A DNA stretch of 56,048 nt from a virus (taxonomy: Duplodnaviria > Caudoviricetes): positions 1-56,048 of the IMG/VR virus record IMGVR_UViG_3300032286_000209, one strand, 5' to 3'. The position numbers and the translations under genes are program-made. Positions 2,168-47,789 of this stretch are shown one piece after another. Under the pieces are notes generated by a model that was not told where the DNA came from, did no database searches, and was given only the letters and a program-made list of their open reading frames with translations. Positions within the stretch are counted from its first letter, which is position 1, and the number at the start of each line of letters is the position of its first letter.

Positions 2168-2485
2168 ATGCAAGAGGTTCCTAATAAAGTTAACATCTTC
2201 GGCAGAGAATATACTATAACTGCCAAAGAACTTTTGGATGGATCCACAGACAGAGAAGAAACATTGGGTCAATGTATAAACGACAAGCTGTGCATAGAGA
2301 TTAAAAAGGGACAGCACTCTTTGTTGGAAGCAGACACTTTGCTACATGAAATAATTCATGCTATAGATGAGATTATGCAAACAAGGATGACAGAAAGACA
2401 AGTGTGCTGTGTAGCCACTGGTCTTATAGGAGTATTGAAAACTAACCCAGAGTTTAATGAGTATTTATATAGGATGACTAGATAA
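2168..2485 (+). CDS. Small zincin-like metallopeptidase
   Basis: TLLHEIIHAI (HExxH) with downstream E in TERQV. Confidence 0.65.
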   Translation: MQEVPNKVNIFGREYTITAKELLDGSTDREETLGQCINDKLCIEIKKGQHSLLEADTLLHEIIHAIDEIMQTRMTERQVCCVATGLIGVLKTNPEFNEYLYRMTR

Positions 2486-4317
2486 TGAAAGAAACTTTCA
2501 CAGAACAGCAGAGAGAAATTGTAGCCCGTAAGATGGGCTATGATGGCCCTATGCAGATGTTTGATGAATATCTAGCATCCACTCCATCTGATGCCACTAA
2601 GTATGCTGCCATCACTTCTAAGTATGCGCTTAAGATGGCTGAGGGTGGCTTAGCTCAGATTGATAATAGCACAACAACCACAGAAGTTACGGATGGAAGT
2701 GATGCCGTTCCTGTTGCACCAGCGCCTACCATCGTCATCCCCGCTACAACAACACCCACTGAAGGAATGCAAGCTGTGCCAACCACAGCGGCTCCTGCTG
2801 TTAGCACTGTAGCAACTTCAATTGCCCCAGCAGAAGTAAAAACTGTAGCTGCTCCAACCGCTGTACAGACAACGGGAATTACTCCCACCACTTCACAGGC
2901 CGCTGTTCAAGCGGAGCTAGATAAGACAAAGGCTGTTCAAGGGGCGGTGTCGGAACAAGGACAGGCCACTGCTGCCGTAATGGAACCAACAGCAACTGCT
3001 GTTAAGAATCTGCAAGCAGCACAAGGCACTGCCGCTCAAACTGTAGCACCAGCAGAAAGAGCAATACAGGCTGGAGAAATGGTTAGTGGCACTGCTGTAG
3101 ATCAAGCTAGGGTGAGTGAAGCACTGGCACAGAACGTAGCAGCACAAGGCACTGTCACTGAAGACATGACCACCACTGGTCAGCTTAATAAGTTGATGAC
3201 ATCGTTTGACGCTGGCGCTCCTCCTCCGTGGGCAGCAGCTTCTATCCGCTCTGTTACGGCTCAGCTAGCAGCTAGAGGACTAGGAGCATCTAGCTTGGCT
3301 GGACAGGCCATCATTCAAGCCACTCTTGAATCGGCAGTTCCTATCGCCAATGCTGATGCTAAGATTTATGCAGACATGGGCTTAGTTAACTTGTCCAATA
3401 GACAAGCCATAGCTATTGAAACAGCTAAGCAAAGAGCAGCTTTCCTTGGGCAGGAGTTTGATCAAGGCTTCCAAACAAAGGTGCTGAATGCAGCTAAGAT
3501 TGCTGATGTTGCTAATAAGAATTTCGATGCTAGTGTAACCATTGCACTAGAGAATTCCAGACTTGCTAACAGTATGAGCATTTCTAATCTATCGGCAAAG
3601 AATGCTTTGGTGTTAGCTGAGGCTGCTCAACTTTCTTCGTTGGAGACAGCTAATCTAAACAACCGTCAACAAGTTGCTGTGGATAATGCTAAAGCTTTCT
3701 TGGCTATGGATCTGAAGAACACAGACATTGCCAGCCAAACTAATTTGATTAAGGCTCAGACAATTGCTAATACCATTGTCAGTGATACAGCAGCAGAGAA
3801 CGCAGCTAAGGCTACCAATGCCGCCAATGAATTAGAAGCCAACAAAATTAATGCAACCCTTGCTCTCACTGCATCACAGTATAACTCGTCAGAGCAGAAC
3901 AGAGTATTAATTGCTAACAACAACGCCATTAATGAGATTGCTAAATTCAACTCCAGTGAAACCAACAAGCGAGAAGAGTTTAATGCTACAATGTCAAACC
4001 AAATTAACATTGCTAATGCTAAACTCTTGGCTGATATCTCCACTGCTAATACAAGAGAAGTGAATGCAGCTAATGCTGTGAATGCAAAGAATGCTACAGA
4101 TCAATCCTCTTCTGTTTATGCTCAGCAGATGCAGACATACAGGGATTTGTTAGAGCTTTCCTATAAAGCTGGAGAGAATGACAAAGATAGACTGACTCAA
4201 ATAGCAACAGCTACCATCACTGCTAATGCTAGTAAAACAGCAGCAGAAATTAAAGCTAATAGCGAGAGTGCTTCTGCTTGGGGAAAACTTGCTTTTGATA
4301 TTTACAAGGCGTGGTAA
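2485..4317 (+). CDS. Internal virion/ejection protein (Ala/Asn/Gln-rich)
   Basis: 610 aa, A/N/Q-rich helical repeats; N-terminal MAEGG motif; first gene of the ejection cluster. Confidence 0.65.
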   Translation: MKETFTEQQREIVARKMGYDGPMQMFDEYLASTPSDATKYAAITSKYALKMAEGGLAQIDNSTTTTEVTDGSDAVPVAPAPTIVIPATTTPTEGMQAVPTTAAPAVSTVATSIAPAEVKTVAAPTAVQTTGITPTTSQAAVQAELDKTKAVQGAVSEQGQATAAVMEPTATAVKNLQAAQGTAAQTVAPAERAIQAGEMVSGTAVDQARVSEALAQNVAAQGTVTEDMTTTGQLNKLMTSFDAGAPPPWAAASIRSVTAQLAARGLGASSLAGQAIIQATLESAVPIANADAKIYADMGLVNLSNRQAIAIETAKQRAAFLGQEFDQGFQTKVLNAAKIADVANKNFDASVTIALENSRLANSMSISNLSAKNALVLAEAAQLSSLETANLNNRQQVAVDNAKAFLAMDLKNTDIASQTNLIKAQTIANTIVSDTAAENAAKATNAANELEANKINATLALTASQYNSSEQNRVLIANNNAINEIAKFNSSETNKREEFNATMSNQINIANAKLLADISTANTREVNAANAVNAKNATDQSSSVYAQQMQTYRDLLELSYKAGENDKDRLTQIATATITANASKTAAEIKANSESASAWGKLAFDIYKAW

Positions 4318-10778: not shown

Positions 10779-12626
10779 TTGGCATTATTTAGTAAATTAG
10801 CTGCTCCTCTTATTGAGGAAGTTGGCACAGATGTGCTTAAAAAAGAGGCAGGTGTTGTAGCTTCTAAAGTTGTTAAGCCATCTCCTCTTATATCTAAAAC
10901 AGCTACATCTGTTTCTAAGAAACAACTGGAGATGGAGGCTGCTTCTGCTGTTGATGATGTCTTGGGCATCGCCCCTAAACCAAAGGTAGTGGAGCAGACA
11001 GCTATAGTGCTGGCTAAGAAGAAGCCCGCTGCTGTCATTCCCGACATCCCCCTTTCATCCACTAAGCGCCCCGTCTTTCAGCCTACATCTACTTCTAAGG
11101 TGGTAAAAGACGAAGGGCTATATTTAGGTGAGGTGGAAAGAGAAGGACGCTTTGTAGATAATGCAGAGCCTGTGCTTGCTAAGCAGGAAGCTGCACCAGC
11201 ACCAGAAGCCGCTGTAACTCCTACACCACCAGCAGAAGAAGTTCCTGTGTGGAAACAGCAATACGATCTGTATAAGAAGTACGAAGCAGAAGGAGAAGAT
11301 GTTGGAGACTTCGATCCCGATGCACCTTTCTCTTGGAACAATCCTGAGAAACAAGAAGTAAGACCGGCAAAGCTACCAGAAGCACCAGCTATTCCTGAAT
11401 CTAAAGTGGTTCAAGGTAACTTAGATAATACTAGCTTTGCACGAAATGGGCCTACCTCTAGAAAGCAAGTGCTGTCCACCATCAGGGAAATAAGAACAGA
11501 TGCTTTTGATAGCCTTATCAATCTTCCTAAAGTAAAAGAATTACCAGATGCTGAAGATGTAATGGCAGTGGTGCAGGGAGACTTCCGATTAAATCAAGGC
11601 AGAGAGATTAATCTTTCTAGCCCTAAGGATATAGCCGTTGTTGAAGATATGGCTGCTTCAGCGCAGAAGAGATTAGACGCTTTGCGTGTGGAATACAAGG
11701 ATACGCCACCTATTAAACTCTATCATGGTAAGGATGCCACATGGAATGAAGCACCTACCAATAGATTTATAACAGGCTTTGAAGACCCACAAAAGTTTAG
11801 TAAATACCACAGTGAGTTGGAAGTGGGCGGCACATCTTTCACCAGAGATCTTAACCTCAATTTTGAGACATCCTCTTTTGGTGGTACAAATCCCAACAAG
11901 TTCTTGTACACCGAAATGCCGTATGCTGATTACATGTTTAAGAGAATTAACATGACACCGACAGCATACGAAGATAAGAATTTGAATGTCATTGCTCAGT
12001 CAATCAATGGATCTGACAGAGTAATTAGACCCGTTAGCATACCTAGGTCTGCCAGCTTCAAAGAAACAGAAGACATGATTACGGAGACAGACAAGCTTCG
12101 TCCTGAAGGAAAAGGAACAGGCAGTCAGCTAGAAGTTAAATCAGGGAAGACTGAAGTGGCTGATAAGTCTGCTGGATTCTTGGAGAGAAGAAAACAAGAA
12201 GATAAGATTAAAGAGAACATCATCTCTTTATCCGGTGACTTAAACACAGAGAGAGGTGTTGTTGCTGCTAATAAGATTTACACTGAGCTAAGAAATCTTC
12301 TCAACAATTATCTAGAGAAAGCTAGCCTGACATCCACTAGGGCAGGGATGGGCCAGCGATATCACCAAGAACTTACTAACTTAGGTGTTATCAGAGGAGA
12401 GAAAGATGTTGTGTCTACAGACTCAATGCTTAAAACAGTAAGCACTATCTTGGAAAAGCAAGGGTCTAAAGAGAAAGCATCCCTACTCAGATCTTTGAGA
12501 ACTGAGTTGAGAGTGCTTGAACAGGGCTACAGAGCAGACTCACAAAAACAAGTGCAGTCTGTCAACAAAGTTAGAGAGCTAACCCAGAAGTTTGCTAAGG
12601 GTGGGTTAGCTTCTAAGAAGAGTTAG
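10779..12626 (+). CDS. Putative virion cargo protein with candidate ADP-ribosyltransferase-like domain; C-terminal FAKGG tag
   Basis: TTG start with SD GGGGA; IKLYHG...F...GGTSFTRD pattern; ends KFAKGGLASKKS. Confidence 0.5.
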   Translation: MALFSKLAAPLIEEVGTDVLKKEAGVVASKVVKPSPLISKTATSVSKKQLEMEAASAVDDVLGIAPKPKVVEQTAIVLAKKKPAAVIPDIPLSSTKRPVFQPTSTSKVVKDEGLYLGEVEREGRFVDNAEPVLAKQEAAPAPEAAVTPTPPAEEVPVWKQQYDLYKKYEAEGEDVGDFDPDAPFSWNNPEKQEVRPAKLPEAPAIPESKVVQGNLDNTSFARNGPTSRKQVLSTIREIRTDAFDSLINLPKVKELPDAEDVMAVVQGDFRLNQGREINLSSPKDIAVVEDMAASAQKRLDALRVEYKDTPPIKLYHGKDATWNEAPTNRFITGFEDPQKFSKYHSELEVGGTSFTRDLNLNFETSSFGGTNPNKFLYTEMPYADYMFKRINMTPTAYEDKNLNVIAQSINGSDRVIRPVSIPRSASFKETEDMITETDKLRPEGKGTGSQLEVKSGKTEVADKSAGFLERRKQEDKIKENIISLSGDLNTERGVVAANKIYTELRNLLNNYLEKASLTSTRAGMGQRYHQELTNLGVIRGEKDVVSTDSMLKTVSTILEKQGSKEKASLLRSLRTELRVLEQGYRADSQKQVQSVNKVRELTQKFAKGGLASKKS

Positions 12627-33352: not shown

Positions 33353-33363
33353 GTTGTTTCCTT

Positions 33364-33654
33364 TCAGGAATAGTATTGTGCTGACCAATCATCCATAAAT
33401 GCATTCACAGTGTGATCAACCACCGTCTCTTCATCTTCAAGGCCAAAGGCCGACACTCTTACCCATGCCAATCGATAGGTATTCTCAGCGTCTCGAATGT
33501 GGAGATGAAGCTCTGCTTCCTCAACGCTTTCGATGGCCTCTATAATTTCATTATAACCAGCGGACTTAGTTACTGCCCATTCCTCACCGTCAAATACACT
33601 TACAGTGTAGCCCTTAGCTAGGGTATATTTCACTAGGTTTTTGTACGCTTTCAT
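33364..33654 (-). CDS. Hypothetical protein
   Basis: GYTVSVFDGEEW motif; start MKAYK after the SD motif. Confidence 0.7.
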   Translation of the reverse strand: MKAYKNLVKYTLAKGYTVSVFDGEEWAVTKSAGYNEIIEAIESVEEAELHLHIRDAENTYRLAWVRVSAFGLEDEETVVDHTVNAFMDDWSAQYYS

Positions 33655-36591: not shown

Positions 36592-36864
36592 ATGCAAATT
36601 AAAAGAGGAACAGAAACATTCAGCGGCTACAACAAGCCTAAGGCTACACCATCGCATCCAACTAAGAGCCATGTTGTGTTGGCTAAAGAAGGGGATAAGG
36701 TTAAGCTTATTCGTTTTGGACAGCAGGGTGTTAAAGGTGCTGGAGCTAATCCAACTACAGAGAAAGACAAAGCCAGACAGAAGAGCTTCAAAGCAAGACA
36801 CGCTAAGGAGATAGCGATAGGTAAGATGTCAGCGGGATACTGGGCTGATAAAGTTAAATGGTGA
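36592..36864 (+). CDS. Conserved small basic phage protein
   Basis: GYNKPKATPSHPTKSH...IRFGQQG...KSFKARH...AGYWA. Confidence 0.75.
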   Translation: MQIKRGTETFSGYNKPKATPSHPTKSHVVLAKEGDKVKLIRFGQQGVKGAGANPTTEKDKARQKSFKARHAKEIAIGKMSAGYWADKVKW

Positions 36865-36896: not shown

Positions 36897-37169
36897 ATGG
36901 CAACAGCAACACCGGAAGAGAAAGTAGCAATGTACAGAGAGAAGGCTAAAGACAAAGCTTTGCCTCAAGATGTGCGTAATGCTTATTTGGACAAGGCCAC
37001 AGCGCTAGAAGCCAAAGCCTACGAAGAAACCAAAGCCGGTTCTACGAAGTCTAACACCCCTCCTAAATACAATATGGGTGGTGCTGTTAAGAAGCCCATG
37101 ATGTATGCCAAAGGCGGCTATGTCAATTGCGGGGCTTCGGTTCCTCCTGCTCAGAAAGCGAAGAAATAA
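36897..37169 (+). CDS. Small basic protein with two xxxGG tags
   Basis: YNMGGAV, YAKGGYV; SD AAGGA. Confidence 0.7.
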   Translation: MATATPEEKVAMYREKAKDKALPQDVRNAYLDKATALEAKAYEETKAGSTKSNTPPKYNMGGAVKKPMMYAKGGYVNCGASVPPAQKAKK

Positions 37170-37171
37170 TT

Positions 37172-37351
37172 ATGGCAACTAAGACTGTTGCTTTAAATAG
37201 ATCGTTGTATGGATCTAAAGCCTCTGCGCTAAAGCGGGAGAGAAAAGATCAGAAGAGAGACATAGCAATGAATCAAGAATTGTTAGGCATGGCTAAAGGT
37301 GGTGCTGTCAAGAAAAGCGCCAAATCTCCCGCTCCAAAAGGAAAGAAATAA
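37172..37351 (+). CDS. Small basic protein with MAKGG tag
   Basis: MATKTVAL...MAKGGAVKK. Confidence 0.65.
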   Translation: MATKTVALNRSLYGSKASALKRERKDQKRDIAMNQELLGMAKGGAVKKSAKSPAPKGKK

Positions 37352-37352
37352 A

Positions 37353-37610
37353 ATGGCACTCACTAAGAAAATCACTGAAGGCAAAGAAACCTATGCTTCC
37401 AAAGCTGCAATGATGAAGCATGAGAAGAAAGAGCCGATGAAGAAAGAGATGAAAGAAGAGAAGCAAGAGAAGATGATGATGGCTAAGGGTGGTGCTGTCA
37501 AGAAGGGTGCTAAGTCTCCTGCTATTGCTCTCATCATCGGCATGGCTAAGCCCAAAGGTAAAGCTACTATGATGAACAAGGGCGGCATGGCTAAGGGCAA
37601 GAAGTGCTGA
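37353..37610 (+). CDS. Lys/Met-rich small protein with two xxxGG tags
   Basis: YASKAAMMKHEKKE...MAKGGAVKK...MNKGGMAK. Confidence 0.7.
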   Translation: MALTKKITEGKETYASKAAMMKHEKKEPMKKEMKEEKQEKMMMAKGGAVKKGAKSPAIALIIGMAKPKGKATMMNKGGMAKGKKC

Positions 37611-37611
37611 T

Positions 37612-37776
37612 ATGGCTACGAAACTTTCTAAGAAGCAAACTGCTAAAGTGGGTAAAGTGATGGGCGAGTTTAAGGGCAAGTCTTTGCATAGCGGCAAAGG
37701 TGGCCCTGTGGTGAAAAATCCAAAGCAAGCCATTGCCATTGCCCTATCTGAAGCTTCTAAGCTAAAGAAGAAGTAA
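37612..37776 (+). CDS. Small basic protein (DUF6496-like)
   Basis: Read manually: KVGKVMGEFKGKSLHSGKGGPVVKNPKQAIAIALSEA. Confidence 0.75.
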   Translation: MATKLSKKQTAKVGKVMGEFKGKSLHSGKGGPVVKNPKQAIAIALSEASKLKKK

Positions 37777-37779
37777 GCT

Positions 37780-38148
37780 ATGCCGTTAGAGATAGCAACT
37801 AAGTTTAAGACAGAGGGGCAGAGCATCACCGCTACAGCAGCGGGTGCTAGCGCCCAAGTTTTATACACTTGCCCTAATAATTATTCAGGCATTGTTAAGT
37901 TTTTAAACATCTCTGCTGGCACATCAGGCAATAAAAAAATATCTGTTCAGATTTATCACGATGAAACTGCTCAGTACGATTATTTATTGAATACTCATGA
38001 TATGACAGCACATTCTACTTTCAATGTGTTGAGTGGGAATACGTTCTCTCTACATCAAAGAGATAAGATTGTTGCTTTTACAGACACAGCAAATAATTTT
38101 GATATTGTTATATCGGTAGACGAATACTTTGACCCTGTAAGGAAATAA
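37780..38148 (+). CDS. Putative small beta-rich virion protein
   Basis: LYTCP motif, alternating beta-strand pattern. Confidence 0.6.
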   Translation: MPLEIATKFKTEGQSITATAAGASAQVLYTCPNNYSGIVKFLNISAGTSGNKKISVQIYHDETAQYDYLLNTHDMTAHSTFNVLSGNTFSLHQRDKIVAFTDTANNFDIVISVDEYFDPVRK

Positions 38149-38149
38149 T

Positions 38150-38326
38150 ATGGCTACTAAGAAATGGATCCAAGAAGCAATTAAGAAACCCGGGGCTTTG
38201 CGGGAATCGCTTGGAGTTAAAGCAGGTAAGACTATTCCAACTAAGGCATTGGCTAAGGCAGCTAAAGCCCCCGGTAAATTGGGTCAACGTGCTAGACTTG
38301 CTGAGACACTGAAAAAGATGAAGTGA
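38150..38326 (+). CDS. Small basic protein
   Basis: Read manually: KWIQEAIKKPGALRESLG...LGQRARLAETLKKM. Confidence 0.75.
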   Translation: MATKKWIQEAIKKPGALRESLGVKAGKTIPTKALAKAAKAPGKLGQRARLAETLKKMK

Positions 38327-38508
38327 TGGCTACCACAAAGAAAGGCGCTGTTGCTACTCCTTACACTAAGCCCACATTGAGAAAGAAGATATTGTCTCAG
38401 GTGAAGGCTGCTGCTGTTCAAGGCACTGCCGCTGGTCAATGGTCAGCTAGAAAAGCACAGCTTGTGGCTAAGAAATACAAAGCTGCTGGTGGCGACTACA
38501 AAACATGA
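38326..38508 (+). CDS. Small basic protein
   Basis: YTKPTLRK...GQWSARKAQL...YKAAGG. Confidence 0.75.
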   Translation: MATTKKGAVATPYTKPTLRKKILSQVKAAAVQGTAAGQWSARKAQLVAKKYKAAGGDYKT

Positions 38509-38738
38509 AAGCCTCTCAGAAATCTCTGAAGGATTGGACAGAGCAGAAGTGGCAGACTAAATCTGGTAAGCCTTCTTCTAAGACAGGGGAGCGCTACCTG
38601 CCAGCAGCAGTAATCAAAGCTCTGACACCTGCGGAATATGCTTCCACTACAAAGGCTAAGCGGGCAGGTAAAGCTAAAGGGAAACAATTTGTAGCACAGC
38701 CTAAGTCTGTTGCTGCTAAAACAGCGAGGTACAGATAA
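38505..38738 (+). CDS. Small basic protein (DUF5872-like)
   Basis: QKSLKDWTEQKW.TKSGKPS..TGERYLP...GKQFVAQP. Confidence 0.75.
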   Translation: MKASQKSLKDWTEQKWQTKSGKPSSKTGERYLPAAVIKALTPAEYASTTKAKRAGKAKGKQFVAQPKSVAAKTARYR

Positions 38739-39109
38739 TGGCAAAAGAACTGAACGATAAGCAAAAGAAATTCCTAGAGGTGTTGTTTGAAGAGGCAGCA
38801 GGTAATCCTGTTGTTGCTAAGCGGCTGGCTGGATTCTCTGAAGGCTATTCCACCAAAGAACTAATCAACTCCTTGAAGGAAGAGATTGCTGAAGCCACCA
38901 CACTATATATTGCAATGAATGCTCCACGCGCTGCGTGTGCTATAATTAGTGGCATTGAAAGTCCTACGCAATTGGGCCTCAAAGAAAAACTTAGTGCTGC
39001 TAAAGATATGCTTGATAGAGCAGGTCATGTGAAGACAGACAAGGTGCAGGTTGAGGCAATGAATGGTGTGATGATTTTGCCAGCGAAGGACAGATCCGAG
39101 GAAGACTAA
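38738..39109 (+). CDS. Putative terminase small subunit
   Basis: N-terminal HTH-like LNDKQKKFL...AKRLAGF, AAKDMLDRAG; upstream of TerL. Confidence 0.6.
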   Translation: MAKELNDKQKKFLEVLFEEAAGNPVVAKRLAGFSEGYSTKELINSLKEEIAEATTLYIAMNAPRAACAIISGIESPTQLGLKEKLSAAKDMLDRAGHVKTDKVQVEAMNGVMILPAKDRSEED

Positions 39110-39555
39110 TGAGTGAACGCACCGCTGGCAAGTGGATATTGCCACAGCCAGAGGGAGGTAAAGAATATGTTTCAGTACCCCAGCTTTCTAGAACGGTTCC
39201 ATTTGGTTATAAGAAGGATGAAGAAAATCAGGGGTGGCTTCTCCCCATCCCAAAAGAGCTAGACGCTCTTGAGCAAGCGAAGAAATACCTAAAGCAATAC
39301 TCGTATAGGCAGGTTGCTGATTGGTTAACGGAAGCATCTGGTAGACAAATTTCTCACGCAGGACTTAAGAGTAGAATAGAACATGAGCAGTCGAACAGGA
39401 GAAAATCTTCAACTTACCGCCTCCTTGCCCAGCGGTACGAAGAAGCCCTTAGGAAGGCCGAAGAGTACGAAAAGAGGATCGGCTCAGAAGGAAGCTACTT
39501 CAAGTCCGACCACTACAGAGACATCTCCTCCAGCTTCAGAAGTGGTGATATCTAG
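39109..39555 (+). CDS. Putative DNA-binding protein (recombinase-type HTH)
   Basis: RTVPFGY...SYRQVADWL...GRQISHAGL. Confidence 0.6.
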   Translation: MSERTAGKWILPQPEGGKEYVSVPQLSRTVPFGYKKDEENQGWLLPIPKELDALEQAKKYLKQYSYRQVADWLTEASGRQISHAGLKSRIEHEQSNRRKSSTYRLLAQRYEEALRKAEEYEKRIGSEGSYFKSDHYRDISSSFRSGDI

Positions 39556-40969
39556 CGCTGTACAGGCTCCTGCACAGAACATCATCTTTAAGCCCAACGC
39601 AGGGCCACAAACATATTTCCTATCTGCCTCAGAGCGTGAGGTGTTGTACGGCGGTGCTGCTGGTGGCGGCAAAAGCTACGCCATGCTAGCAGATCCGCTA
39701 CGCTATCTAGGCCATCCTCAATTCTCTGGCCTGTTGTTACGCCACACAACAGAGGAACTCCGAGAACTTATCTGGAAAAGCCAAGAAATTTATCCCAAAA
39801 TTTATCCCAACATTAAGTGGAGTGAGCGGAAGATGCAGTGGGTTGCCCCATCTGGCGCTAGATTGTGGATGTCATACCTAGATAGAGATGAAGATGTGCT
39901 TCGTTATCAGGGATTGGCATTTAGCTGGATTGGTTTTGATGAGCTAACCCAGTGGCATACCCCGTTTGCGTGGAACTACATGAGGTCACGGCTGCGTACT
40001 CCTGCTGCTGACCTGCCAATTTACATGAGAGCCACCACAAATCCGGGTGGGCCGGGTCATGCTTGGGTGAAGAAGATGTTTATTGACCCAGCACCGGCAG
40101 GAAAAGCGTTCTGGGCCACCGACATTGACACTGCCACCACCCTATCCTACCCCAAAGGACACTCCAAAGAGGGACAACCGCTGTTCAAACGCAGGTTTAT
40201 ACCCGCAATGCTCACCGATAACCCCTATTTGGCTGAGACAGGCGACTACGAAACCATGTTGTTGTCCCTTCCAGAGCATCAACGCAAGCAATTACTGGAA
40301 GGAAACTGGGATATTGCAGAGGGAGCAGCGTTTCCTGAGTTTAATAGGGCCATACATGTGGTAGAACCCTTTGATATTCCACATAACTGGGTTAAATTTA
40401 GGGCTTGTGATTATGGATATGGTAGTTATAGCGCTGTTGTATGGTTTGCTGTCACCCCAAGTGAGCAATTGGTCATCTATCGTGAGCTTTATGTATCAAA
40501 GGTGTTGGCAAAAGACTTAGCTAGGATGGTGATACAGGCAGAAGAGAACGATGGCACTATGAGATACGGGGTGCTAGACAGTAGCTGCTGGCATAAGCGT
40601 GGTGATACAGGGCCATCACTGGCAGAACAGATGATTATGGAGGGATGTCGCTGGCGACCCTCCGATAGAAGCGCAGGAAGCAGGGTTTCGGGGAAGAATG
40701 AGCTACATAGAAGGCTACAGCTTGATCCGTTTACAGATATGCCAAGAATGGTTATAACTAGTAACTGCGTGAACACTATAGCTCAGCTTCCTATTATCCC
40801 TTTGGATAAAAGAAATCCAGAGGACATTGACACTAAAGCGGAAGACCATCTTTATGATGCAATTCGCTATGGAATTATGAGTCGCCCCCGCAGTAGCTTG
40901 TTTGATTATGACCCAGCTAATCCCAAGCAGTACGGGATGAAGGTGGCAGACCCAGTTTTTGGTTATTGA
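39383..40969 (+). CDS. Terminase large subunit (start uncertain; possibly GTG at 39542/39545)
   Basis: YGGAAGGGKS Walker A, FDELTQ Walker B, TTNPGG, DYGY RNase H-like nuclease, DHLYDAIRY. Confidence 0.95.
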   Translation: MSSRTGENLQLTASLPSGTKKPLGRPKSTKRGSAQKEATSSPTTTETSPPASEVVISSAVQAPAQNIIFKPNAGPQTYFLSASEREVLYGGAAGGGKSYAMLADPLRYLGHPQFSGLLLRHTTEELRELIWKSQEIYPKIYPNIKWSERKMQWVAPSGARLWMSYLDRDEDVLRYQGLAFSWIGFDELTQWHTPFAWNYMRSRLRTPAADLPIYMRATTNPGGPGHAWVKKMFIDPAPAGKAFWATDIDTATTLSYPKGHSKEGQPLFKRRFIPAMLTDNPYLAETGDYETMLLSLPEHQRKQLLEGNWDIAEGAAFPEFNRAIHVVEPFDIPHNWVKFRACDYGYGSYSAVVWFAVTPSEQLVIYRELYVSKVLAKDLARMVIQAEENDGTMRYGVLDSSCWHKRGDTGPSLAEQMIMEGCRWRPSDRSAGSRVSGKNELHRRLQLDPFTDMPRMVITSNCVNTIAQLPIIPLDKRNPEDIDTKAEDHLYDAIRYGIMSRPRSSLFDYDPANPKQYGMKVADPVFGY

Positions 40970-40982
40970 ATTAAGGAATAAT

Positions 40983-43085
40983 ATGGTAGAGAAGCAACAA
41001 TCGCTAGGAGATAAAAGCTTAGCCCTTAACGATGTTAAGTCAACAGAGGATGTTGATGTTGAGGGCAGTGGCATTATTGCCTATGTGGAAGAACGCTTCA
41101 CTCGCTCTGAAACAAGCCGAAAACAAGACGAAGCTAGATGGCTTCGTGCCTATCGCAACTATCGTGGCATCTATGGCACTGATGTTCAATTCACTGAACA
41201 TGAGAAATCGCGTGTCTTCATCAAAGTTACGAAGACAAAGACGCTGGCTGCTTACGGACAAATCATTGAAGTATTATTCTCCAACAATAAGTTTCCTCTC
41301 AGCGTAGACCCCACTGTCTTGCCTGACGGTGTTGTAGAGAATGTCCACTTCGATCCAAGCGATAAGACACCTCCATCAGAGAAGAAGCAAACAGAGATTC
41401 CTTTTGGTGAAGAAGGCGGCAAATCTATCTCCAGCGGATTCACTCTAGACAATCTAGAGGAAATGCTTGGGGCAATGAAGGATGAGCTTAAAGACATCCC
41501 CAACTTAAAAGAAGGGCCGGGAGTTACGCCCACCTCTGTCACATTTAGTCCTGCTATGGTGGCAGCTAAGAAGATGGAGAAGAAAATCCATGATCAGCTA
41601 GATGAGACAGGAGCTTCTAAGCATCTGCGCTCTACAGCTTTTGAGATGGCATTGTTTGGCACTGGCGTTATGAAAGGCCCGTTTGCCGTAAACAAAGAAT
41701 ATCCTAGCTGGGACGCTGACGGTAAATACAAGCCAACAATTAAGACAGTGCCCGAAGCTTCTCATGTTTCCATCTGGAACTTCTATTGGGATCCTGATGC
41801 TAACAACACTGGTGATTGCCAATACACCATTGAGAGACACAAGATGTCTCGCACCCAACTGAGGGCTTTGAAGAAGCGTCCCCACTTCCGCGCCAATGTC
41901 ATTGACCAAATCATTGAAGAAGGCGAAGGCTATGTAAAGAAATATTGGGAAGACGATCTCAAAGACTATGCTCCTACATTTGGAGTTGAGCGCTTTGAAG
42001 TGCTGGAATACTGGGGCAATGTAGACATTGCTTTGTTGGAAGAGAACGAAGTGGATATTCCTGAGGACATGAAAGACTCTGGAGAATTACAGGCCAACAT
42101 CTGGTATTGCAACGGCAAAATCTTGAGGCTTGTTCTCAACCCATTCAAGCCCTCGCGCATTCCCTATTACGCTGTTCCCTACGAACTCAATCCCTACTCC
42201 CTTGCTGGTGTCGGCATTGGTGAGAACATGGATGATACACAGACATTGATGAATGGCTTCATGCGTATGGCTGTTGATAACGCTGTGTTGTCTGGTAATT
42301 TGATATTTGAAATTGATGAAACCAACCTTGTCCCCGGTCAAGACTTGTCTGTCTATCCCGGCAAGGTGTTCCGCAGACAAGGGGGCGCTCCGGGGCAGTC
42401 GCTGTTTGGAACTAAGTTTCCGAATGTGTCCAATGAGAACCTGCAATTGTTTGATAAGGCTAGACAGCTAGCAGATGAGTCTACAGGACTTGCGTCTTTC
42501 TCGCATGGTCAAACAGGAGTACAGGGCGTAGGACGCACTGCCAGTGGCATCAGCATGTTGATGAATGCCGCCAGCGGTAATATCAAAACGGTTATTAAGA
42601 ATGTTGATGACTACCTGCTTGCTCCATTAGGAGAAGCATTCTTCAACTTCAACATGCAGTTTGATTACGATCCAGCAATCAAAGGCGACTTGGAAGTTTC
42701 TGCCAAAGGTACAGAGAGCTTGATGGCTAACGAAGTTAGAAGTCAGCGCTTGATGCAATTCTTGCAGATTGCTAGCCAGCCTTCTCTTGCTCCGTTTGCT
42801 AAGTTCCCCTACATCATCCGTGAGATTGCTAAGAGCATGGACTTGGATCCAGAGAAGGTAACTAACAACATGGATGAGGCTTTGAAGCAAGCGTTCCTAA
42901 TTCAGCAGAATGCTCCCCCAGCACCTCCCGGCCTTCCTCCCGGTGCTGCCCCTCAAGGCGCTCCTCCACAGGGCGTAGCTGGCCCTCCAAGCGTTGCAGA
43001 CATGAGCGGCGGTGGTGGTGGCAACATTGGTATTGGTGCGGCCCCAGCCCCCGGAGAACAAGGATTTAGTGGCAATGCAGGATAA
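40983..43085 (+). CDS. Portal protein
   Basis: ~700 aa after TerL; LFGTGVMK, DPDA, TASGISML; Pro/Gly-rich tail. Confidence 0.88.
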   Translation: MVEKQQSLGDKSLALNDVKSTEDVDVEGSGIIAYVEERFTRSETSRKQDEARWLRAYRNYRGIYGTDVQFTEHEKSRVFIKVTKTKTLAAYGQIIEVLFSNNKFPLSVDPTVLPDGVVENVHFDPSDKTPPSEKKQTEIPFGEEGGKSISSGFTLDNLEEMLGAMKDELKDIPNLKEGPGVTPTSVTFSPAMVAAKKMEKKIHDQLDETGASKHLRSTAFEMALFGTGVMKGPFAVNKEYPSWDADGKYKPTIKTVPEASHVSIWNFYWDPDANNTGDCQYTIERHKMSRTQLRALKKRPHFRANVIDQIIEEGEGYVKKYWEDDLKDYAPTFGVERFEVLEYWGNVDIALLEENEVDIPEDMKDSGELQANIWYCNGKILRLVLNPFKPSRIPYYAVPYELNPYSLAGVGIGENMDDTQTLMNGFMRMAVDNAVLSGNLIFEIDETNLVPGQDLSVYPGKVFRRQGGAPGQSLFGTKFPNVSNENLQLFDKARQLADESTGLASFSHGQTGVQGVGRTASGISMLMNAASGNIKTVIKNVDDYLLAPLGEAFFNFNMQFDYDPAIKGDLEVSAKGTESLMANEVRSQRLMQFLQIASQPSLAPFAKFPYIIREIAKSMDLDPEKVTNNMDEALKQAFLIQQNAPPAPPGLPPGAAPQGAPPQGVAGPPSVADMSGGGGGNIGIGAAPAPGEQGFSGNAG

Positions 43086-43290
43086 GACTTATCTCTCTAA
43101 GCTGAAAGCTCTGGTTTCTAACAACAACCAGTGGAATGGCTTTTGTGAAATGCTTCAATTCAATATTGAGCAGCAACAGCGCAAGCTGGAACAGGCATCA
43201 GACCCACGCGAAATCTATCAAGCTCAAGGAGCTATAACTGCGCTTCGTCAATTGAAATATCTCAAGGAAGAAATAAATGCGAACAAATAA
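43075..43290 (+). CDS. Small post-portal protein
   Basis: IYQAQG...LRQLKYLKEEIN motif; ATG overlaps the end of the portal gene. Confidence 0.7.
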   Translation: MQDKTYLSKLKALVSNNNQWNGFCEMLQFNIEQQQRKLEQASDPREIYQAQGAITALRQLKYLKEEINANK

Positions 43291-45025
43291 TTTACTAGCA
43301 ACCGGCGGCATGATGCAAGAGGGTGGCACTACAGATCCTGTCAGTGGTAATGATGTTCCTATTGGCTCATTGAAAGAAGAAGTTAGGGATGATGTTCCTG
43401 CCCAGCTTAGCCCCGGAGAGTTTGTTTTCCCTGCTGATGTAACTCGCTACATCGGTTTGGATAAGCTTATGCAGATCCGTGAAGCAGCTAAAGAAGGCTT
43501 GAAAGAAATGGAGAGCAAAGGGCAAATGGGCAATTCTGAGGAAGTTGAAGGTGACGCTGTTGATGAAGATAAGTTCTCCACCAACATTGATGAAATTATT
43601 GCTGACCTAGATGGTGATGGCAATAGTGAGCCTAAGAAGTTTGCTGAGGGCGGCTCAGTGAATACATCCGACTACAGCGCTGCTCCCATCAAAGGTTTTA
43701 AGATGGTGCAATATGAGGACGTAGAAACAAAGACAGTTAAGTATATTCCGTTTGTTAATGGCAAAGCTTTGCTCCCCATTCCAAAAGGATACACAGAAAA
43801 GAAAGTGGTTGCTCCGGTTGAGCCAGTAGCGCCTGTTGTGCCTGTCGAGGATCAAGCTGCGCTTGCTAGAGCAGGAGGTGGTGGCGGTGGTGGTCGTGGA
43901 GGTAAATCAGAAATAGAAGGTGGTGGTGTTGCTGGTGAATCCAATGATGCAGGAATAGAAGGCTTTGGTGATATTCAAGGTGGAACAAACCCCAATATAG
44001 GAAGAGTGGCTGGTTTTGTTGCGGGCCTTGCTAATCCCATTTTTGGTCTTGTTGTAAGCGCAGCGTCAGCATATTCTATCAAAGAGAATAATAAAAAAAT
44101 GGCGTCTGCTAATGCACAAGCTATAGATGCCTCTGCCTTAGCTGCTGCGGGCTTTGAAGCAAGATCCATAAAAGCAGCTCAAGAAGCCGCAGCAAAAGCT
44201 ACACTAGAAGGTAAGAGTGCTAAAGACATTGCTGTAGCTGCTGCTAACGCTGCTTCTGAATCTGCTGGGACTGCCCTTAGTAAAAGTATTGATGGCAACT
44301 ATGGGGCAAAAACATCACTTGATGCCCTCCTTGGTATTGTCAATGGATTTAATACAGCCAATAAAGACGTAATGGCAATGCCAAAAGAATTGGCAGATAA
44401 AGTTGAACCAAGAGCTTGGAGCAATGTTGTTAAAGCAATGGAAGATGGACTAACTCCTGAACAGGCCGCTACGCTTTCAATGACGGGAGTAGAGGGAAGT
44501 ATTCCAGCAGGTGAGTACAACAATGTTATTGGGCTTGTGAAAGAGGGATATTCTGTAAGAGAAGCTATAGATACCGTGACAATGAGAGGTATTACAGAAA
44601 CAGACCAAGAAGCTAGAGATGCTGAAGCAGCAGATAGAGAAGCGGCAAATCAAAGAGCTTTGGAAGCAGATAGAGCAGAAGCAGATAGAACAGAAGCAGC
44701 CGACAAAGCAGCTAGAGATCAGGAAAGAGCAGATAGAGAAGCTAGCGATAGAGAGGCAGCAGCTAGAGAAGCAACCAATCAAGCATCTCTGAATGCAGCT
44801 AGAGAAGCAGCCGATAGAGCAGAAGCACAGCAAGCGGCAGCAGATAGAGCAGCACAAGCAGATAGAGAAGCAGCAGATAGAGTAGCACAACAAGCAGCAC
44901 AAGCAGATGCTGATCGAGCGGTTGTTAGGGAATCTAGTAGTGGTCGTGGCGGTAACGAAGCTCCCGGAACTGGCAGCTACGGTGACGCAAAAGGCGATCT
45001 CCGTGGCGGCGGCTTTAACGATTAA
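43277..45025 (+). CDS. Head-associated protein with DDVPAxLSxGEFV domain (candidate maturation protease), three xxxGG tags and an Ala/Asp/Arg coiled-coil tail
   Basis: LATGG/MQEGG/FAEGG; RDDVPAQLSPGEFVFPADVTRYIG; EAADR repeats at 44620-44915; lies between portal and scaffold. Confidence 0.55.
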   Translation: MRTNNLLATGGMMQEGGTTDPVSGNDVPIGSLKEEVRDDVPAQLSPGEFVFPADVTRYIGLDKLMQIREAAKEGLKEMESKGQMGNSEEVEGDAVDEDKFSTNIDEIIADLDGDGNSEPKKFAEGGSVNTSDYSAAPIKGFKMVQYEDVETKTVKYIPFVNGKALLPIPKGYTEKKVVAPVEPVAPVVPVEDQAALARAGGGGGGGRGGKSEIEGGGVAGESNDAGIEGFGDIQGGTNPNIGRVAGFVAGLANPIFGLVVSAASAYSIKENNKKMASANAQAIDASALAAAGFEARSIKAAQEAAAKATLEGKSAKDIAVAAANAASESAGTALSKSIDGNYGAKTSLDALLGIVNGFNTANKDVMAMPKELADKVEPRAWSNVVKAMEDGLTPEQAATLSMTGVEGSIPAGEYNNVIGLVKEGYSVREAIDTVTMRGITETDQEARDAEAADREAANQRALEADRAEADRTEAADKAARDQERADREASDREAAAREATNQASLNAAREAADRAEAQQAAADRAAQADREAADRVAQQAAQADADRAVVRESSSGRGGNEAPGTGSYGDAKGDLRGGGFND

Positions 45026-45167: not shown

Positions 45168-46025
45168 ATGACAGAAGCAGTATTGGAAAAACAAGAACAG
45201 AAAGTAGCGTTTGCTAGCCGCAACGCTAATCAGGAAAAGATTACTCAAGAGGAAGAAGAGCTTAAGAATCTCATCGATCTGAACAAAGAGGGAAAACCTG
45301 CACCCACTAGTTCAGAAGATGACAGTAACCTCAGCGCAGAAGAGAAGACATTCAAGAAGCGCTATGGCGATCTGAGAAGCCATTCTCAGAAGCAGCAGGT
45401 TCAGCTTCAGAAAGAGATTGATGACCTTCGCTCACAGCTTCAAAAAAGCACCACTAGTCAGATTAAGCTTCCCACCAGCGAAGAAGACTTGGCTGCTTGG
45501 GCAAACGAATATCCTGAAGTTGCCCGTATTGTGGAAACAATTGCCATTAAGAAAGCTAAGGAGCAAGCAGCAGAACTGGCTGACCGCTTCAAAGCTTTGG
45601 ATGAAAGAGAGCAGCAAACTGCTAGAGACAAGGCTGAGGCTGAACTTCTGCGTATCCACCCCGACTTTGAGGCCATTAAAGAAAGTGATGAATTCCATAC
45701 TTGGGTAGAAGAGCAACCCATTTGGATTCAGAATGCTCTGTATGAGAATGACTCAGACGCTAAATCAGCGGCCCGCGCCATTGATTTGTACAAGGCAGAC
45801 AAGGGAATTGGCAAGGCTAAGAAGTCTGATAACAGAGGAGCAGCCGAAAGTGTATCCACTAGAAGCAGCAGATCTGCTCCGTCCAATATGGATTCTGAAG
45901 GCGTAATTTATGAATCACAGGTGAATGCTATGACCTCTCATCAGTATGAAGCCAATCAAGAAGCCATCTCCAAAGCTATCAAGTCTGGGAAATTTGTATA
46001 CGACTTGAGTGGTAATGCACGGTAG
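45168..46025 (+). CDS. Capsid scaffolding protein
   Basis: FKKRYGDLR coiled coil, HPDF, AARAIDLYK, C-terminal AIKSGKFVYDLSG; upstream of MCP. Confidence 0.8.
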   Translation: MTEAVLEKQEQKVAFASRNANQEKITQEEEELKNLIDLNKEGKPAPTSSEDDSNLSAEEKTFKKRYGDLRSHSQKQQVQLQKEIDDLRSQLQKSTTSQIKLPTSEEDLAAWANEYPEVARIVETIAIKKAKEQAAELADRFKALDEREQQTARDKAEAELLRIHPDFEAIKESDEFHTWVEEQPIWIQNALYENDSDAKSAARAIDLYKADKGIGKAKKSDNRGAAESVSTRSSRSAPSNMDSEGVIYESQVNAMTSHQYEANQEAISKAIKSGKFVYDLSGNAR

Positions 46026-46718: not shown

Positions 46719-47789
46719 ATGGCTTTTCCAAAAGCAACTGGTTACGGCAACCTACCCAATGGGAACTTCAGTGCCGTAATCTATTCCAAGCAAGTACAAC
46801 TTGCATTCCGTAAGGCTTCCACTGTTGAAGCTGTGACCAACAACGACTATTTTGGCGAGATTGCCAACATGGGCGATTCGGTTAAAATCATCAAAGAACC
46901 TGAAGTTAGCGTTCAGTCGTATGCTCGTGGCACACAGATCACTGCACAAGACCTGAATGACGAAGACTTCACGCTGGTTGTCGATCAGGCTAACTACTAC
47001 GCCTTCAAGATTGATGACATTGAAGCTGCTCACTCGCATGTCAACTTCATGCAGATGGCTTCTGATCGCGCTGCTTACCGCATCCGTGACCAGTATGACC
47101 AAGACGTTTTGGGCTACCTGTCGGGCTATCAACAGTCTGCCAAGCACACCCAAGCCGGTACTGCCCGCACTACCTTCCCCGGTACTAAGGCACTGACCGA
47201 AGCTGGCTCCAACGAACTGTTGGCTAGCATGCAACTGAAGAAGGGCGACTTCGGCAATATCACCACTGCTTCCGCTGGCGATCACTCCATTCCTTTGGCT
47301 GCTCGTCTGCCCGGAGCTACCGCTCTGCCTACGGCTACGGCTTCTCCTCTGATGGTGATTGCCCGTATGAATCGTTTGCTTGATCAACAGTTTGTTGACT
47401 CGCAAGGTCGTTGGTTGATCGTTGACCCCATCTTCATGGAACTGTTGAAAGACGAAGACAGCCGTTTGCTTAACAGCGACTTCGGCGGTGCTGGTCTGCA
47501 AAACGGTTTGGTGGTGAACAACCTGCACGGCTTCAAAGTGTATGTGTCCAACAACCTGCCTAAAGTGGGAACTGGCGCTGGCACTACCGGAACAGCTAAC
47601 CAGAACACCAACTTCGGTGTGATCGTTGCTGGTCATCAGTCTGCTGTTGCAACCGCTCAGCAGATCACCAAGACAGAAACCTATCGTGACCCCGATAGCT
47701 TTGCTGACATCGTGCGTGGTATGCACCTCTATGGTCGCAAGATTTTGCGCCCTGAGGGAATTGTCACTGCTAAGTATAACGCTGCTTAA
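46719..47789 (+). CDS. Major capsid protein (N4 gp56-like)
   Basis: LPNGNF...YSK, TNNDYFGEI..GDSVKII, RDPDSFADIVRGMHLYGRKILRP; strong codon bias; SD AGGAG. Confidence 0.93.
   Translation: MAFPKATGYGNLPNGNFSAVIYSKQVQLAFRKASTVEAVTNNDYFGEIANMGDSVKIIKEPEVSVQSYARGTQITAQDLNDEDFTLVVDQANYYAFKIDDIEAAHSHVNFMQMASDRAAYRIRDQYDQDVLGYLSGYQQSAKHTQAGTARTTFPGTKALTEAGSNELLASMQLKKGDFGNITTASAGDHSIPLAARLPGATALPTATASPLMVIARMNRLLDQQFVDSQGRWLIVDPIFMELLKDEDSRLLNSDFGGAGLQNGLVVNNLHGFKVYVSNNLPKVGTGAGTTGTANQNTNFGVIVAGHQSAVATAQQITKTETYRDPDSFADIVRGMHLYGRKILRPEGIVTAKYNAA

Follow-up and report, generated by a model that had tools for sequence, protein, structure and literature searches.

A two-glycine tag and a neighbouring GE-core segment mark late proteins of an HMO-2011-type marine podophage and recur in siphophage tape-measure proteins

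The late region of the phage genome studied here raises the question of why a short two-glycine peptide recurs in several otherwise different proteins, and whether the product of the gene after the portal gene is a protease that reads it. The window (the whole stretch of DNA analysed, 56,048 nt) is the complete genome of an HMO-2011-type podophage, and a preliminary description of it had proposed a tag-and-processor system with a catalytic domain encoded at a prohead-protease locus. Our analyses indicate that the tag and the conserved segment beside it are a true mark of several late proteins of this marine phage, which are probably head-internal. The tag itself, its late specificity, its co-occurrence with the segment, the gene position and the tape-measure likeness all held up, whereas the protease nature of the locus and the catalytic domain did not. 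The features concerned are collected in Table 1.

Table 1. Tag-bearing proteins, module parts and neighbouring head genes in the window
Feature	Position	Strand	Basis
First large protein (610 aa) in the terminal late block; MAEGG tag at aa 51, nt 2635	2485..4317	+	Scan, relatives; internal or ejection role by position only
Last large late protein, 615 aa; ends QKFAKGGLASKKS	10779..12626	+	Scan, relatives
Small Lys-rich protein a, 90 aa; tags YNMGG and YAKGG; ends YAKGGYVNCGASVPPAQKAKK	36897..37169	+	ORF, scan
Small Lys-rich protein b, 59 aa; tag MAKGG	37172..37351	+	ORF, scan
Small Lys-rich protein c, 85 aa; tags MAKGG and MNKGG	37353..37610	+	ORF, scan
Portal protein	40959..43085	+	Pfam SU10_portal 4.4e-23; phrog_332/1216
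Small conserved ORF overlapping both portal and GE-core genes	43075..43290	+	ORF; relatives
Post-portal protein, 582 aa	43277..45025	+	ORF, translation, homologs
Core-proximal tags LATGG and MQEGG, aa 7-17	43295..43327	+	Six-frame scan, family alignment
GE-core, aa 18-60, TTDPVSGNDVPIGSLKEEVRDDVPAQLSPGEFVFPADVTRYIG	43328..43456	+	Podophage family alignment
Predicted helices, aa 53-59, 61-86, 97-113	43433..43615	+	Alignment, model
Downstream flank tag FAEGG, aa 122-126	43640..43654	+	Six-frame scan
Scaffold-like protein	45168..46025	+	Position; phrog_13678, unknown function
Major capsid protein	46719..47789	+	Pfam Phage_capsid_4; phrog_267

A six-frame scan of the window with [MFYL][ANQ]xGG gave 12 matches. 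Ten lie in long plus-strand frames (2635, 12591, 37068, 37104, 37289, 37479, 37572, 43295, 43313 and 43640) and are exactly the copies listed in the preliminary description, while the remaining two (17032 and 22706) fall in plus-strand frames inside a block with minus-strand genes. Using crude gene calls, the 41 late ORFs (10,516 aa) held 10 tags against 1.86 ± 1.34 in per-protein shuffles, a level reached by 0 of 1000 shuffles that on its own overstates significance, since the pattern was defined post hoc; the independent evidence is conservation. The 44 early ORFs (7,051 aa), called equally crudely, held none (shuffle mean 0.97), in line with the earlier claim that the tag marks late proteins and has no clear copy in replication genes. 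The tag is constrained at position 0 (M/F/Y/L), at +1 (A/N/Q/K) and after the glycines (hydrophobic). The pairs following GG in the ten copies are LA, LA, AV, YV, AV, AV, MA, MM, TT and SV, so that the small or hydrophobic pair noted previously after most tags is indeed present.

The same distribution was found in relatives. Six-frame matches fell in annotated late coding sequences, at homologous places, in 7 of 11 cases for HMO-2011, 9 of 12 for MW202701 and 5 of 7 for CRP-1, with a single tag in an early coding sequence across the three genomes. In 80 IMG/VR loci, the plus-strand ORFs other than the domain protein held 135 tags compared with 46.1 ± 6.3 after shuffling (maximum of 200 shuffles, 65), although these loci were retrieved via the GE-core domain and thus cannot reveal tags that occur without it. 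Phages lacking the core were represented by a small sample of two whole genomes and two loci. T7 and P22 gave 2 and 1 matches, with no enrichment over the whole genomes, and P22 has no GE-core; phiM6 and CHOED, whose portals are related (51% and 42% identity), have no GE-core and no tags in 17.8 and 16 kb. Within this small sample, the predicted co-occurrence of tag and GEFV segment was thus upheld. In lambda there were three matches, every one of them in gpH.

Outside the post-portal gene, the tags sit in two large proteins and three small ones. The product of 2485..4317 is an internal or ejection protein as judged by position only, and its tag is conserved at aa ~51-63 in HMO-2011 gp25 and in MW202701 UOF80717. 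At the end of protein c stand a doubled tag and a tail of basic residues. Six tagged proteins had been called unrelated, which has to be amended for the small ones: the ORFs at 37172-37351 and 37353-37610 have AKGGAVKKxAKSPA..PKGK in common (E 5e-6), and in relatives the three small ORFs form one Lys-rich family. The ATG starts of the second and third small ORFs are also corrected here, to 37172 and 37353. ESM Atlas returned nothing named for the small tag protein.

Tag and GEFV segment are not independent of each other; they form one composite module with the order tag-tag-GE-core-helices-tag. In the post-portal protein this conserved module covers residues 1-~128, followed by ~450 C-terminal aa that are variable and of low complexity. 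Glycines G10, G11, G16 and G17 of the core-proximal tags are invariant in the family, and the helix region includes an invariant GQM and an acidic helix. Among 489 family proteins, a tag is found 20-75 aa before the core in 451, 55-115 aa after it in 410, and on both sides in 376. These proteins, which are mutually non-independent, contain 1,396 tags as opposed to 83 ± 8 in shuffles. Invariant polar residues are numerous in the podophage clade (D20, S23, N25, E35, R37, D38, D39, S45, E48, D54, R57, R68 and K72) and would also fit an enzyme, which would count against a docking role. When podophage and tape-measure versions are taken together, only G11, E48 and G60 are invariant.

What stays constant across a very large, variable and unannotated protein family is this module; the family comprises 3,166 clusters (50% identity) at E<=1e-3, of which 1,417 reach E<=1e-30. 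For the 43277 ORF, no family was found in Pfam, PHROG or NCBIfam, even with the threshold relaxed to E<=10, and a profile search of PDB sequences returned only two chance V-ATPase rows and no solved relative. The label 'crAss cargo protein 1' offered by ESM Atlas (0.84) was not supported by Pfam at E<=10. The core is N-terminal (within the first 60 aa) in 175 of the family proteins and C-terminal (within the last 130 aa) in 59; in the other 255 it is internal. Partner domains above the Pfam cut-offs in relatives were ART-PolyVal, Phage_lysozyme2 with LysM, and DUF4214, with weaker matches to LPD23, L5_gp82 and Hint; 4 of 14 scanned relatives had no partner domain, and Pfam recognised no second domain in the window's own protein. 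Domain junctions in relatives coincide with tags. In long relatives, tags are confined to the surroundings of the core and to the C-terminus, where they are doubled; a C-terminal tag with a basic tail, the kind of end also seen in the 10779 ORF, occurs in 72 of the 489 proteins.

The position of the gene is equally constant. Of the 80 IMG/VR loci, 71 have a same-strand portal match upstream, the other nine having <1.2 kb of upstream sequence, and in all 71 informative loci the family gene is directly downstream of the portal gene. A scaffold-like gene follows in 61 of the 80, the other 19 being too short. The placement between portal and scaffold-like genes described earlier is thus confirmed in the window and in the IMG/VR loci. 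In Vibrio phage CHOED, a counterpart of the 43075..43290 ORF stands after the portal gene. The designation of this slot as a prohead-protease locus was not borne out, as it is occupied by a post-portal family protein in every informative locus of the phage group; it resembles a MuF/gp7-type site for a variable internal protein more than a protease slot.

A homolog of the GE-core, as sequence comparison shows, is present towards the C-terminal end of siphophage tape-measure proteins. Alignment of the podophage family with four tape-measure segments by hhalign gave 96.2% (E 2.5e-9, 53 columns, aa 37-89 of the post-portal protein), and 32 of 46 weak tblastn rows fell within annotated tape-measure genes; the resemblance put forward in the preliminary description is thereby substantiated. 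The module is visible in the tape measures of Burkholderia, Quesadilla and pVco-14 phages and in lambda gpH 730-788, where it lies inside TIGR01541 and contains two tags. Both forms have the common order tag, GE[FY]V core, G..L, tag, whereas the podophage core contains an additional ~20 aa (DPVSGN..VP.GS...EV) as well as long helices, and is encoded by a head gene after the portal gene rather than a tail gene. The window protein itself gave no family match to TIGR01541, PF09718 or TMP_2/3/4, and PF09718 spans gpH 627-701, outside the module. T5 pb2 was rejected as a member: MAFFT places it there, but hhalign gave 0.07% (E 0.71). In lambda, gpH is cut into gpH* and gpHC, and the fragment with the module adjoins the glycine-rich region of the cut; the Ur-lambda paper (PMC12617516) leaves both site and catalyst open. 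The same paper describes gpH ~690-817, which includes the module, as not visible in the virion structure, so that in lambda it would form no stable docking element in the mature particle.

Could the GE-core itself be a protease specific for the tags, cutting them in cis and in trans? We consider this very improbable. In its favour, podophage proteins and tape measures keep tags at a fixed distance on either side of the core, a single Glu (E48) is conserved without exception in the superfamily, the podophage clade has its many invariant polar residues, the gpH cleavage has no catalyst assigned in PMC12617516, and no peptidase family was found among the 77 window ORFs that could act instead. The 43277 ORF, however, matched no peptidase family in Pfam, PHROG or NCBIfam, including the HK97 gp4/S78, T4 gp21/S77 and lambda gpC/S49 types, and has no profile relative among solved structures. 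Three tags are present as had been described. The compact Asp/Ser/Glu domain proposed between them is not supported: AlphaFold2 modelled aa 1-135 with a pLDDT of 56.5 and a 184-aa relative with 55.8, with the tag and GE region (residues 1-52) as coil, and D38, D39 and S45 are not kept in tape measures. The structural check for active-site geometry thus gave no compact fold in either run, which is weak evidence given the low confidence of both models; a deeper alignment would be no help, since 48 representatives (<78% mutual identity) are still 51-89% identical to the query. A likeness of the core to serine-peptidase motifs was discarded, the Ser position being an Asp in the window and not conserved. 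The usual self-cleavage chemistries need a nucleophile, and the T5 cut residues R|A would provide none. Nothing shows that the GE module is a protease. A related idea, that tag and GE-core form a self-contained dock-and-cut element in which assembly triggers cutting at the tags by the folded GE-core with its invariant Glu, as one exit code for long- and short-tailed phages, seems improbable. If true, it would explain the catalyst and site of the step from gpH to gpH* as well as the loading and release of interchangeable injected enzymes in abundant marine podophages.

Two further readings were considered. It is unlikely, though with a real chance of being right, that the tags are mainly processing sites, at or beside which a host or other peptidase cuts internal proteins. 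N-terminal propeptides and basic tails at C-termini would be lost in this way, the small Lys-rich proteins would be divided into basic peptides, and polyvalent relatives would have their N-terminal enzyme domains released. The tag conserved near residue 51 in the first large internal protein, the two-tag module of the cleaved gpH and the window's lack of a peptidase family are consistent with this, and T5 pb2 is reported to be cut after R1127 (PMC10038345), where the sequence R|AEGGMMYPG is tag-like. In P22, the ejection protein gp7 loses its first 20 aa to a host protease (PMC4992974), and its new end would be KGGKGG. Since pb2 is not detectably related to the module, the T5 site is a by-eye resemblance; trimming of 6-10 residues from a C-terminus needs an extra rationale, tags in long relatives do not part enzyme domains from one another, and the HMO-2011-type group has no known neo-termini. 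The podophage phiRIO-1 is reported to show no clear processing (PMC4819975). It is decidedly unlikely that the module, once ejected, works at the host envelope (for instance as a binder of peptidoglycan, membrane or a conserved periplasmic component), with the tags as flexible glycine hinges or linkers that have no specific reader. The tip-proximal end of tape measures and podophage internal proteins are alike in being the first to leave the particle, lambda virions show the segment disordered (PMC12617516), some relatives carry lysozyme and LysM, and tags mark domain junctions. The tag flanks are nonetheless constrained beyond the needs of a hinge, and linkers poorly explain C-terminal tags with basic tails or tandem tags in tiny proteins.

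The reading we favour, tentatively and a little short of even confidence, is that the module is a non-enzymatic, partner-dependent docking or hand-over element for internal, ejected proteins. What the analysis shows directly is a conserved motif, the make-up of the module, the place of its gene, the tape-measure homology and the absence of a peptidase signature; we infer a virion-internal location, docking, the identity of the receptor and any cutting. The module is built from one to three tags (hydrophobic, A/N/Q/K, x-G-G, hydrophobic, V/A), followed by the GE-core, a pair of helices with an acidic stretch, and a further tag. Alone it would be extended or disordered and would order only within an assembly; its carriers would sit inside the virion and exit ahead of the DNA, and the shorter form near the tip-proximal (C-terminal) end of siphophage tape measures is its counterpart. 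Free-standing tags occur beside a Lys-rich tail at an extreme C-terminus, some 50 aa into the first large internal protein, and in tandem in small Lys-rich proteins; they may be ligands tying their proteins to the same assembly, and their most economical receptor would be the GE-core protein. Cutting at tags is possible, and some tags may also be cut sites for a host or other peptidase rather than for the GE-core. A precedent for docking is the reported entry of the last 43 residues of T5 pb2* into the opened hub as strands (PMC10038345). We found no virion proteomics or cryo-EM for HMO-2011-type phages in the literature. A complex prediction of module residues 1-120 with the 85-aa small tag protein scored 0.00 without controls and is uninformative either way.

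T4 capsid-targeting sequences, which are cut by the gp21 prohead protease, are likewise a short peptide common to otherwise different internal proteins, whereas in the window there is no prohead protease family and tags occur also at C-termini and inside chains. The relatives are like MuF, SPP1 gp7 and polyvalent proteins in combining a portal-adjacent gene and a constant module with variable enzyme domains (ART-PolyVal, LPD23, lysozyme). They have the multi-domain make-up of polyvalent proteins, for which packaging and injection have been proposed (Iyer et al. 2017, PMC5512222). The window protein, in contrast, has no Phage_Mu_F or other Pfam match and resembles the MuF/gp7 family in gene position only; it has no recognisable second domain, and its module is short and predicted to be unfolded. 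T5 pb2 shares a tag-like cut site (R|AEGGMM) and an extended segment just before the cut that docks as strands (PMC10038345), without significant similarity to the module. P22 gp7 is a podophage ejection protein that loses 20 N-terminal residues, host OpdA-dependent, beside a GG-rich stretch (PMC4992974, NC_002371), yet its motif is different and P22 lacks both tag enrichment and the GE-core.

Tag and module are real, widespread and undescribed; we found no account of the motif in the literature on phage GEFV, tape-measure C-terminal cleavage motifs, or HMO-2011 proteomics and cryo-EM. HMO-2011-type phages are reported to be among the most abundant marine viruses (PMC9038755), and their post-portal protein and tag lack annotation in Pfam, PHROGs and NCBIfam. 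The common module would offer a handle on which proteins these phages carry and inject, and on how a constant anchor holds exchangeable enzyme domains (ADP-ribosyltransferase, lysozyme, methyltransferase). Its tape-measure homology would provide a handle on the lambda gpH cut, for which, by analogy, the bonds 733/734 and 778/779 would be obvious candidates. In metagenomes, searches for the tag could also help to find internal or ejected proteins.

The two-glycine tag, [MFYL]-[ANQ]-x-GG, is real, conserved and far above chance expectation. All ten copies reported in the preliminary description were confirmed, as were their enrichment in late genes and their absence from replication genes: by our own gene calls, the 41 late ORFs hold 10 tags and the 44 early ORFs none. 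Shuffling each protein gave 1.86 ± 1.34 tags in the late ORFs, and none of 1000 shuffles reached 10. Since the pattern was written after the data had been seen, we place more weight on conservation than on this count. Tags were found again at homologous places in HMO-2011, MW202701 and CRP-1, where orthologs of the 2485 ORF (the first large protein of the terminal late block) carry one or two at residues ~51-63 and the small Lys-rich ORFs heading the late operon are also tagged. The last large protein of MW202701 has a tag 12 residues before its C-terminus; HMO-2011 gp22 and CRP-1 gp31 have no C-terminal tag. Across 80 IMG/VR loci, plus-strand ORFs other than the domain protein contain 135 tags in 221,331 aa, versus 46.1 ± 6.3 after shuffling, and minus-strand ORFs contain 9 in 145,921 aa. 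The tag is constrained to M/F/Y/L at position 0 and A/N/Q/K at +1, with a hydrophobic residue and then V/A after GG.

Contrary to what had been proposed, the tagged proteins are not all unrelated. Of 82 tagged ORFs in these loci, 42 are at most 130 aa; these form a single Lys-rich family whose members have as many as seven tags, so small ORFs a, b and c of the window (see table) belong to one family. The end of protein a (37101-37166, plus strand; YAKGGYVNCGASVPPAQKAKK) resembles the first half of the module described below, with tag, spacer and S-V-P-P-A-Q (compare D-D-V-P-A-Q-L-S in the core); the GEFV part is absent. The ending ..YANCGASVPPAQKxKK recurs in many relatives. In some small tag proteins of relatives, a motif with four Cys (C..C.SPAKCKAAGKC) lies between tags; of this motif the window's proteins keep only AKSPA. 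At the start of the late operon, the tag proteins are surrounded by a cluster of other tiny basic proteins.

Tag and "domain" together make up a single module, occupying the first ~128 aa of the 582-aa post-portal protein (43277 ORF) in the order tag, tag, GE-core (residues 18-60), helices, tag. Among candidates of similar length, 2,695 of 3,115 were recognized as relatives of its first 135 residues; for shorter candidates the figure was 595 of 657, and for longer ones 367 of 740. An exhaustive profile search returned 3,166 clusters at 50% identity. Among 489 family proteins, which are mutually related so that their tags are not independent events, tags lie at fixed distances from the GE-core: 451 have one 20-75 aa before it, 410 have one 55-115 aa after it, and 376 have both. 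In 72 of the 489 a tag with K/R after it falls within 25 residues of the C-terminus, and the last large late protein of the window (10779 ORF) ends in the same way. The GE-core is N-terminal in 175 of these proteins, C-terminal in 59 and internal in the other 255. Stand-alone forms, of 112-190 aa, comprise the module and nothing else. In long relatives the tags are confined to the surroundings of the core and to the C-terminus, where they are doubled; N-terminal extensions, which vary, are attached to the module at a tag. Pfam scanning of 14 relatives identified ART-PolyVal, Phage_lysozyme2 with LysM, and DUF4214 above cut-offs, LPD23, L5_gp82, Hint and methyltransferase below them, and no variable domain in four. 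Over its C-terminal three quarters the 43277 protein is low-complexity, containing a run of Gly (GGGGGGGRGG), stretches rich in Ala and, close to its end, repeats of Ala/Asp/Arg/Glu; close relatives (>85% module identity) range from 544 to 724 aa.

The suggested resemblance to siphophage tape-measure C-termini was borne out by hhalign and by a shared order of elements. Of the 46 weak tblastn matches listed at E≤5, 32 lie in unrelated siphophages, in genes annotated as tape measures. The order tag, GE[FY]V core, G..L, tag was found near the tape-measure C-terminus in Burkholderia phiBt-TXDOH, Quesadilla and pVco-14, and at residues 730-788 of lambda gpH, within TIGR01541 (472-813) and outside PF09718 (627-701). 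The podophage alignment matched four tape-measure segments with a probability of 96.2% (E 2.5e-9, window residues 37-89). According to PMC12617516, gpH is cut within a glycine-rich region near its C-terminus to give gpH* and a ~14-kDa gpHC, and residues ~690-817 have no resolved structure in virions. T5 pb2 was also considered; it is cleaved after R1127, in a tag-like sequence (R|AEGGMM), and in the opened hub the 43 preceding residues are docked as strands (PMC10038345), but it has no significant similarity to the module (hhalign 0.07%, E 0.71) and is therefore taken as an analogy only. The Quesadilla tape measure (L009) has its GEFV module at ~1735-1800 and a second tag-like element (FDEGG..EPELV) at ~2050-2080, at the far C-terminus, which follows a Gly-rich hydrophobic region and is similar to the T5 sequence downstream of the cleavage site.

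The record is complete (56,048 bases; CheckV 100%), with late genes on the plus strand (36.3-56 and 1-13 kb) and early and replication genes on the minus strand (13-36 kb). Searching with the 43277 ORF (tblastn) matched 14 phage records, all HMO-2011-type, including Puniceispirillum phage HMO-2011, eleven Roseobacter CRP phages and MW202701. The small ORF after the portal gene overlaps both its neighbours, occupies the position of HMO-2011 gp50, and is similar in its C-terminal half to the 77-aa ORF that Vibrio phage CHOED has after its portal gene. The 173-nt overlap of the longest terminase ORF with the ORF before it, annotated similarly in HMO-2011 (gp53/TerL) and CRP-1 (gp52/TerL), may mean that the terminase starts later or that recoding occurs here. 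The Phage_L5_gp82 domain that stands alone among the early genes is fused, with a weak score, into one long GE-core family protein (P0266).

Positions of the features discussed (window coordinates, or locus of a relative or comparison phage)
Feature	Position	Strand	Remark
Integrase and ADP-ribosylglycohydrolase	26938-28909	-	adjoining, early strand
Phage_L5_gp82 domain protein	32957-33388	-	stand-alone, 1e-40
Tiny basic ORF	36592-36864	+	phrog_7595; also part of phrog_220, "minor head protein and DNA pilot" (1.6e-6)
Small tag protein a	36897-37169	+	
Small tag protein b	37172-37351	+	
Small tag protein c	37353-37610	+	
Tiny basic ORF	37612-37773	+	DUF6496
Tiny basic ORF	38323-38508	+	phrog_17747
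Tiny basic ORF	38505-38738	+	phrog_14910
Small terminase			first in local gene order; weak PHROG match
ORF upstream of large terminase	39109-39555	+	
Large terminase, longest ORF	39383-40969	+	between small terminase and portal
Portal	40959-43085	+	
Small ORF	43075-43290	+	71 aa from ATG; between portal and 582-aa protein
582-aa protein (43277 ORF)	43277-45025	+	
Low-complexity part	43850-45025	+	
Scaffold-like protein	45168-46025	+	
Cys-rich ORF			between scaffold-like and major capsid
Major capsid protein	46719-47789	+	
Four-Cys small tag protein	L034 709-1029		
Four-Cys small tag protein	L061 938-1288		
Four-Cys small tag protein	L063 547-741		
Four-Cys small tag protein	L073 938-1120		
Four-Cys small tag protein	L074 3283-3459		
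P22 gp7	L096 9369-10058		

A portal homolog lies directly upstream of the module gene on the same strand in 71 of the 80 IMG/VR loci (the other nine have <1.2 kb upstream) and a scaffold-like homolog downstream in 61 (the other 19 are too short); as all were retrieved through the domain, these counts are evidence for position, not co-occurrence. The argument from a protease locus fails, the post-portal slot of the HMO-2011-type group always holding a module protein; in portal relatives it holds an unrelated 813-aa protein (phiM6) or nothing (CHOED). These two phages lack the core, and no tag occurs in the 17.8 and 16 kb surrounding their portals. T7 and P22, also without the core, have two and one tag matches with no enrichment in ejection proteins, and the three matches in lambda all fall within gpH. 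The comparisons agree with a coupling of tag and core in this small sample.

While tag, module and tape-measure link stood, the central claim of a tag-specific protease is unsupported. The 43277 protein matched no peptidase or other family in Pfam, PHROG or NCBIfam, and no peptidase family was matched among 77 window ORFs. Two AlphaFold2 runs (alignments of 40 and 29 sequences; pLDDT 56.5 and 55.8) left tags and GE-core as coil and modelled only helices after residue 53; such low-confidence models are compatible with a fold that may form only in complex. A module profile search found no relative among solved structures. When podophage and tape-measure versions are compared, G11, E48 and G60 are the only invariant residues, so the proposed catalytic Asp and Ser are not kept. 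That the GE-core is itself a tag-cutting protease is very improbable. Cutting at the tags by a host or unknown peptidase has a precedent in P22 gp7, from which a host protease (OpdA) trims the 20 N-terminal residues (P22 record; PMC4992974) and which would then begin KGGKGG; we consider such cutting unlikely. The C-terminal tags with basic tails, the tandem arrangement of tags in tiny proteins and the absence of a phage protease fit docking better than pure cutting. Docking and hand-over by the module is our tentative reading, somewhat short of an even chance, and the extreme conservation of the podophage clade, with its many invariant polar residues, counts against it. It is quite unlikely that the module acts on the host envelope or that the tag is a mere hinge. 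Docking and cutting are mutually compatible.

No description of the module was found in literature searches on the GEFV segment in phages, on tape-measure C-terminal cleavage motifs and on proteomics or cryo-EM of HMO-2011, it has no entry in the three family libraries, and within these it is undescribed; the literature likewise yielded no virion proteomics for the HMO-2011-type group. The combination of a constant module with variable domains follows the pattern known from "polyvalent" and MuF-type proteins, for which Iyer et al. (PMC5512222) propose packaging and injection. By this analogy we infer that the module proteins of HMO-2011-type phages are packaged inside the virion. Under the docking reading, the module would be an extended, partner-dependent segment anchoring variable internal proteins, and other internal proteins, like the small basic proteins, would be linked by their free tags to the same assembly, in the simplest case to the GE-core protein itself.
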